Below are positions 1-1,200 of a stretch of DNA of 1,200 bases, piece by piece. Every line of letters starts with the position of its first letter. The stretch's first letter is position 1. The position numbers were made by a program, and so were the translations under genes. The stretch lies in sequence record MN525562.1; one strand, written 5' to 3'. The stretch is from a phage. The notes below the pieces were generated by a model, which saw only the letters and a list, made by a program, of their open reading frames with translations, had not been told where the DNA came from and did not search any database.

Positions 1-1200
1 ATGCTTAATTATAATGCTCCTATTGATGGTCAGAAATCTTCTATTGATGGTGCTGGTTCTGATCAGATGAATACTTATTATTGGCTTAAAAAAGCTATTA
101 TTCAGTCTCGTAAAGATCAGTATTTTATGCCTCTTGCTAATACTATTAATATGCCTAAAAATTATGGTAAAACTGTTAAAGTTTATGAGTATGTTCCTCT
201 TCTTGATGATAAAAATATTAATGATCAGGGTATTGATGCTAATGGTGCTACTATTGTTAATGGTAATCTTTATGGTTCTTCTCGTGATGTTGGTAATATT
301 ACTTCTAAACTTCCTCTTCTTACTGAGAATGGTGGTCGTGTTAATCGTGTTGGTTTTACTCGTCTTTCTCGTGAGGGTTCTATTCATAAATTTGGTTTTT
401 TTTATGAGTTTACTCAGGAGTCTCTTGATTTTGATTCTGATGATCAGCTTAAAGAGCATCTTTCTCGTGAGCTTATGAATGGTGCTGTTCAGCTTACTGA
501 GGCTGTTCTTCAGAAAGATCTTCTTGCTGCTGCTGGTACTGTTCTTTATGCTGGTGCTGCTACTTCTGATGCTACTATTACTGGTGAGGGTGCTACTCCT
601 TCTGTTGTTTCTTATAAAAATCTTATGCGTCTTGATCAGATTCTTACTGAGAATCGTACTCCTACTCAGACTACTATTATTACTGGTTCTAAACTTACTG
701 ATACTAAAGTTCTTGGTGGTACTCGTGTTATGTATGTTGGTTCTGAGCTTGTTCCTGAGCTTAAAGCTATGAAAGATCTTTTTGGTAATAAAGCTTTTAT
801 TGAGGTTCAGCATTATGCTGATGCTGGTACTCTTATGAATGGTGAGATTGGTTGCATTGATAAATTTCGTATTATTCAGGTTCCTGAGATGCTTCATTGG
901 GCTGGTGCTGGTGCTCAGGTTTCTACTAATCCTGGTTATCGTTCTTCTATGGTTTCTGGTGAGGAGCATTATGATGTTTTTCCTATGCTTGTTGTTGGTG
1001 ATGATTCTTTTTCTACTATTGGTTTTCAGACTGATGGTAAATCTGTTAAATTTTCTATTATGACTAAAATGCCTGGTCGTGAGACTGCTGATCGTAATGA
1101 TCCTTATGGTGAGACTGGTTTTTCTTCTATTAAATGGTATTATGGTATTCTTGTTAAACGTCCTGAGCGTCTTGCTCTTATTAAAACTGTTGCTCCTCTT
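1..1200 (+). CDS. Putative phage major capsid protein (HK97-fold, N4 gp56-like size class suspected); 3'-partial, no stop codon in window; sequence appears synthetically back-translated
   Basis: Seen directly: ATG at 1-3 followed by 399 further sense codons in frame +1 with no stop, in a sequence of roughly mid-30s % GC by eye, where an open frame of this length is very unlikely by chance. Translation: [400 protein letters not shown]. It is globular-looking, has a single Cys, and is rich in Gly/Thr/Ser/Ala/Asp/Asn. Product call is from recollection only: the C-terminal '[10 protein letters not shown]' resembles the 'RPE/RPT + hydrophobic' motif near the C-termini of T7 gp10 (LRPEAAG), P22 coat (TRPEAIG) and HK97 gp5 (YRPTAIIKG). 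Confidence that this is the coding frame is high; confidence in the capsid assignment is about 0.5-0.6. The opposite strand and frames +2/+3 show no credible coding potential. Confidence 0.75.

Follow-up and report, generated by a model that had tools for sequence, protein, structure and literature searches.

Capsids of N4-like phages have a triangulation number of T = 9, whereas those of T7 and P22 are T = 7 (PMC11654681). The N4 capsid, solved at 2.45 Å, is a T = 9 shell with 535 copies of gp56, and it carries the Ig-like protein gp17 as a decoration (PMC11768535). For Moo19 and B2, each major capsid protein has been described as adopting an 'HK97-like fold' within a T = 9 capsid (PMC11654681), and gp77 of phage DEV (PDB 9BGN) as adopting a 'classic HK97 fold' in a T = 9 head (PMC11445570). 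By cryo-EM and mass spectrometry, the main shell component was shown to be gp56 in N4, gp77 in DEV, gp73 in Moo19 and gp36 in B2 (PMC11768535, PMC11445570, PMC11654681). An N-arm comprising residues 1–46 has been delimited both in N4 gp56 (PMC11768535) and in DEV (PMC11445570), and residues 358–373 of N4 gp56 form an extended P-domain loop (PMC11768535).

Here we describe a stretch of 1,200 nucleotides from a phage sequence record (MN525562.1), analyzed over its whole length and referred to below as the window. The window is almost certainly a synthetic, fully synonymous back-translation that encodes the complete gp56 major capsid protein of Escherichia phage vB_EcoP_G7C (G7C), by homology an HK97-fold shell subunit. 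The features discussed below are collected in Table 1.

Table 1. Features of the window and the capsid protein C termini with which it was compared
Feature	Position	Strand	Residues after RP(E/T)	Basis
Complete CDS, 400-aa N4-gp56-family major capsid protein, stop codon excluded	1..1200	+		G7C gp56 protein match
Predicted long N-arm as in HK97-fold proteins, residues 1–46	1..138	+		Homology; gap-free relative to N4 gp56 here
Predicted extended P-domain loop, residues 357–372 (N4 gp56 358–373)	1069..1116	+		Homology
Conserved C-terminal segment, RPE at residues 387–389 (nt 1159–1167)	1132..1200	+		Homolog alignment
Window protein C terminus			11 (after RPE)	
T7 gp10A C terminus, ...GLRPEAAGAVVFKVE	L003 968-2005		10	
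P22 gp5 C terminus, ...TRPEAIGVGLPGQTA	L005 4804-6096		11	
HK97 gp5 C terminus, ...YRPTAIIKGTFSSGS	L004 4028-5185		11	

Identity and family of the encoded protein

Translation of the + strand of the window (1-1200) gives a 400-codon open frame in frame +1 that begins with ATG and contains no stop. The most frequent residues are Gly (38), Leu (34), Thr (31), Ser (27), Ala, Asp and Val (26 each), Lys (25), Ile (24) and Asn (21), and there is a single Cys. The Kyte–Doolittle maximum, taken as a 19-residue mean, is 1.09, so the translation has no transmembrane-like segment. The initial annotation of this DNA had described at least 400 residues without a stop and no obvious transmembrane segment, both of which hold, and the C-terminal string of 23 residues that it quoted is exact. 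Its description of the protein as rich in Gly, Thr, Ala, Ser, Asn and Asp with one Cys is right in general, except that Leu is the second commonest residue and Asn is not notably enriched.

In a tblastn search of phage records, all 400 residues are identical to gp56 of G7C (100%; HQ259105 / NC_015933), and the two proteins begin and end alike. G7C is an N4-like coliphage (Schitoviridae, Enquatrovirinae, Gamaleyavirus) whose 72.9-kb genome is about as large as the genomes of related phages, and its gp56 (YP_004782186.1; NC_015933 54291-55493) is annotated as a major coat or major head protein. The window protein is this already known protein, and there is nothing new in it. The same search matched 480 records, nearly all of them at full length; 56 are at least 95% identical, with 10 at 99% or above and 46 between 95 and 99%.

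When the two genes are compared codon by codon, the natural G7C CDS (1203 nt) has a TAA directly 3′ of codon 400, and the protein is therefore complete in the window at 400 residues. The natural gene differs from the window in possessing this stop and flanking sequence, both of which the window lacks. The initial annotation had expected the stop a few tens of nucleotides past position 1200 and a length of 405–415 residues, which is too long. It had also named a frame continuing for hundreds more codons past the window as evidence against its reading; the natural gene stops after codon 400.

Every test that we ran places the protein in the N4-gp56 family. The NCBIfam equivalog model TIGR04387, 'N4-gp56 family major capsid protein', is matched with 339 bits, its curated cutoff being 60 bits (E = 2.9e-101), over model positions 7–324 of 324, and PHROG 1357, 'major head protein', is matched with E = 6.6e-151. 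Pfam PF25209 (Phage_capsid_4), which has a cutoff of 27 bits, scores 37 bits and was the sole match in the Pfam scan, in which no HK97-type Pfam capsid family was found. A large protein database contains at least 7957 relatives, several of which carry the name 'N4-gp56 family major capsid protein' from their source. The three family models, together with the complete identity to G7C gp56, bear out the initial annotation, which had compared the expected length with that of N4 gp56-type capsid proteins. The biological weight of the assignment is small, in that the phage has been sequenced, its capsid protein is already catalogued, and structures of near-identical relatives are available at up to 2.45 Å.

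Recoding of the DNA and the likely source of its codon table

The 400 positions of the window are written with only 20 distinct codons, one for each amino acid (GCT, TGC, GAT, GAG, TTT, GGT, CAT, ATT, AAA, CTT, ATG, AAT, CCT, CAG, CGT, TCT, ACT, GTT, TGG and TAT), compared with 50 in the natural gp56 gene. T occupies the third position in 322 of the 400 codons (80%), and the GC content is 35.9% as opposed to 46.0% in the natural gene. Relative to the G7C gene, 188 of 1200 nucleotides differ, 180 of them at third positions, for a DNA identity of 84.3%; 182 codons are recoded, and the protein is unaltered. The top DNA match by blastn among 50,697 phage records is 85.0% identical, a 60-mer taken from the window had no exact counterpart in a viral contig collection, and a megablast search against plasmids returned no match to the window DNA. 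In addition, the window opens precisely at the ATG and closes precisely at the last sense codon. The use of 20 codons, the DNA matches of at most 85% and the exact CDS ends together lead us to conclude that the window is a back-translation made with a fixed table. They point to a recoding by machine that is neither natural nor conventionally codon-optimised.

The recoding is a matter of provenance and not a biological feature. Signals at the DNA level, including codon bias, GC content, third-position T, the antisense frame, repeats, promoters and RNA structures, are to be read as artefacts of it. An Rfam search of both strands of the window found nothing. The initial annotation, which was read from the sequence only, overlooked both the 20-codon usage and the non-natural character of the DNA.

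To characterize the table, we compared the window codons with five reference codon usages, those of phiX174, a 17-kb region of G7C, T7, P22 and HK97. Among the 18 degenerate amino acids, the window codon is the one most used by phiX174 in 17 cases, and for Cys, the remaining one, phiX174 has a tie (TGT 13, TGC 13). The same agreement is 12/18 for the G7C region, 10/18 for T7, 7/18 for P22 and 6/18 for HK97. The table likely derives from phiX174 or from a closely similar T-rich usage, which is to be read as a match among five usages and not as proof. We also considered the codon preference of natural gp56 as the source and rejected it, the window codon being the top codon of the natural gene for 11 of 20 amino acids.

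It is less likely, although still a serious alternative, that the recoding followed another table, either a generic rule of T in the third position or the usage of another T-rich genome, and that the match to phiX174 is a coincidence. A T-ending codon is enough to explain 14 of the 18 degenerate choices, and the comparison covered five references only, but the choices that do not end in T (GAG, CAG, AAA and TGC) are each the top or tied-top codon of phiX174. Moreover, with approximately 3.4e8 one-codon tables possible, phiX174 agrees at all non-tied positions, whereas the other four references agree at 6–12 of 18. We therefore retain phiX174, or a table much like it, as the likely source.

That the window is instead a natural fragment of a Gamaleyavirus or N4-like genome with extreme codon bias is very improbable. 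The encoded protein is certainly natural, and N4-like capsid genes favour T-ending codons, with GCT, GGT, CGT, ACT, GTT and TCT on top in the G7C gene; yet that gene encodes the identical protein with its 50 codons, while the window shows zero synonymous variation over 400. For 9 amino acids the window codon differs from the one preferred by the natural gene, and the ceiling of 85% on natural DNA identity, the lack of an exact match in viral contigs and the boundaries of the window all speak for synthesis.

Frame 1 of the minus strand is also open throughout the window (1-1200), for 400 codons, because none of the codons TTA, CTA and TCA occurs in the sense frame. Since the two frames are equally open, the length of the ORF alone proves nothing, and the + frame is set apart from chance by its homology (E = 9e-247), the antisense frame being without a Pfam or PDB homolog. 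We rejected the antisense ORF as a gene. Its lack of a stop across the entire window is the one point in favour of frame -1 as the real gene, and this openness arises by construction, no codon in use having a stop as its reverse complement; the K/R/S/N/T/I-rich translation matches no Pfam family and nothing in the PDB better than E = 0.2, so the chance that the gene lies on this strand is negligible. The back-translated G7C gp56 on the + strand is the reading that we carry forward.

Solved homologs, fold and the C-terminal segment

The window protein aligns end to end and collinearly with four solved subunits. The closest are the 401-residue major capsid protein in PDB 9D7Z (E = 9e-247; 89.0% global identity) and the 401-residue N4 gp56 in 9E99 / 9LBZ / 9LD7 (E = 3e-245; 88.3% for 9E99), followed by 9D82, 'B2 Capsid' (E = 4e-148), and 9BGN, 'gp77 major coat protein' of Pseudomonas phage DEV (E = 2.5e-140). 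To reach other HK97-fold families, we searched the PDB with a profile of our homolog alignment (A1) at E values up to 10, which brought up these four Schitoviridae entries and no others. Judging from neighbouring deposition numbers and the paper, 9D7Z is probably gp73 of Shigella phage Moo19.

N4 gp56 matches the same family model, TIGR04387, and is collinear with the window protein from residue 1 to the C terminus. The alignment with 9E99 covers 401 columns with one gap, and phmmer pairs residues 1–400 with 1–401; the differences are one extra residue near position 308 of the N4 protein and 46 substitutions. N4 itself is an Enquatrovirus, whereas G7C is a Gamaleyavirus. The capsid proteins of 9D7Z, B2 and DEV are likewise full-length homologs and share the C-terminal pattern IKWYYG...RPE...KTVA, although those of B2 (389 residues) and DEV (399 residues) are more divergent and have RPEW where the window protein has RPER.

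Identity of 88–89% to solved subunits argues for the same fold in the window protein, and it is from these published structures that we take the HK97 fold to apply. The assignment rests on the solved homologs because an AlphaFold2 model, calculated from an input of 24 sequences of low diversity (85–92% identity), had a mean pLDDT of 29.7 and a pTM of 0.19 and was unusable. As the solved relatives (9E99, 9D7Z and 9BGN) are HK97-fold proteins, the initial reading of an HK97-fold major capsid protein is supported.

By analogy with N4, DEV, B2 and Moo19, gp56 would serve as the HK97-fold shell subunit of the G7C virion, with 535 copies, grouped into hexamers and pentamers, almost certainly forming a T = 9 icosahedral head in which the portal would take one vertex. 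The long N-terminal arm (residues 1–46) and the extended P-domain loop would lace adjacent subunits together. The T = 9 geometry given here for G7C is extrapolated from those four phages, and the number of copies and the limits of the domains likewise come from homologs.

The HK97 fold, with its N-arm, E-loop, P-domain and A-domain, also occurs in encapsulins and gene transfer agents. It is nevertheless scarcely conceivable that the window encodes the shell protein of a non-viral or domesticated system (a defective prophage, an encapsulin or a gene transfer agent) in place of a virion capsid, given that the identical gene lies in a lytic N4-like phage, with the portal gene to one side and genes for virion structural proteins to the other, that the N4-gp56 equivalog model is matched, that 480/480 tblastn matches are in phage records and that relatives of 88–89% identity were built directly into cryo-EM maps of virions (PMC11654681, PMC11768535). 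A virion capsid protein remains our reading.

Toward the C terminus, residues K386, R387, P388, E389 and R390 are invariant across 24 homologs. The ending WYYG...RPE...VA, or in its longer form IKWYYG...RPE...VA, is kept in the solved capsid proteins of N4, 9D7Z, DEV and B2, all of which end 11 residues past RPE. For comparison of the C termini, we fetched and translated the capsid genes of T7, P22 and HK97 (Table 1). The RP dipeptide occurs once per protein in T7 gp10A, P22 gp5, HK97 gp5 and the window protein. The C termini that the initial annotation gave for the three reference proteins agree letter for letter with the real genes. The motif that it drew from them, RP(E/T) followed by a hydrophobic residue some 10–15 residues before the end, is real and lies 10–11 residues from the end in T7, P22, HK97 and the window protein, although it does not formally define the HK97-fold class. 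Because RPE at 387–389 plus 11 residues gives 400, the motif rule predicts an end at the very edge of the window. The accuracy of this sequence-only reading on the family, the fold class and three C termini bears on how reliable such readings are.

The window protein shares the HK97 fold class and lies outside the HK97 gp5 sequence family, the HK97-type capsid proteins characterized by a delta domain and covalent cross-linking. According to the literature, HK97 gp5, T7 gp10A and P22 gp5 have the fold in common with it, and each carries a single RP(E/T) plus hydrophobic motif near its end, but none has significant overall sequence similarity to it. When A1 was compared by hhalign with the single sequences, the probabilities were 0.4% for T7 gp10A, 0.1% for HK97 gp5 (E = 0.56) and 1.6% for P22 gp5, none of them significant. 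The best local match of P22 gp5 is the C-terminal stretch, where 17 window residues align with IALWYGVNATRPEAIGV. We put forward tentatively, and with the balance tipping slightly against it, that the arrangement of an aromatic residue and Gly, a short spacer of a few residues, RP(E/T) plus a hydrophobic residue, then 10–11 further residues may be an ancestral remnant shared across the HK97, T7, P22 and N4-like lineages, whose sequences are otherwise unrelated. If so, this C-terminal signature could be a cheap marker for the ends of capsid genes. A WYG a few residues upstream of RP(E/T) is common to P22 and the N4-like proteins.

The natural gene and its neighbours in G7C

The gene order in G7C runs from the lysis genes (gp63-gp60) through the portal gene (gp59), gp58, gp57, gp56 and gp55 to the structural genes gp54-gp51 and the virion RNA polymerase (gp50). 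These genes make up the N4-like virion module, in which natural gp56 has the portal gene and the gene for the giant virion RNA polymerase in its vicinity; the window has no flanks. The small genes that flank the capsid module, gp58 (L001 6400-6744) and gp55 (L001 9271-9912), fall into PHROG groups of unknown function, 2346 and 2130, respectively, and show conservation among N4-like phages.

The gene directly upstream of gp56, gp57 (L001 6764-7984), carries the RefSeq name 'tail length tape measure protein' and matches PHROG 2120 (E = 7e-147), which is labelled likewise. G7C, a podovirus, has a short tail, and its gp57 sits between the portal and major capsid genes. Scaffolding proteins usually occupy the position between these two genes. 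The tape-measure name seems questionable, and gp57 is a possible candidate for the scaffold; in N4, no scaffolding protein has been identified (PMC11445570, the DEV paper).

Among the close relatives, the record of Klebsiella phage vB_Kpl_K57alpha1.2 (OY979416.1) contains a capsid gene at 18686-19885 that is 97.8% identical. The match is annotated there as 'immunity to superinfection | dCTP deaminase | unknown function', which suggests that the annotation is misplaced or on the wrong strand.
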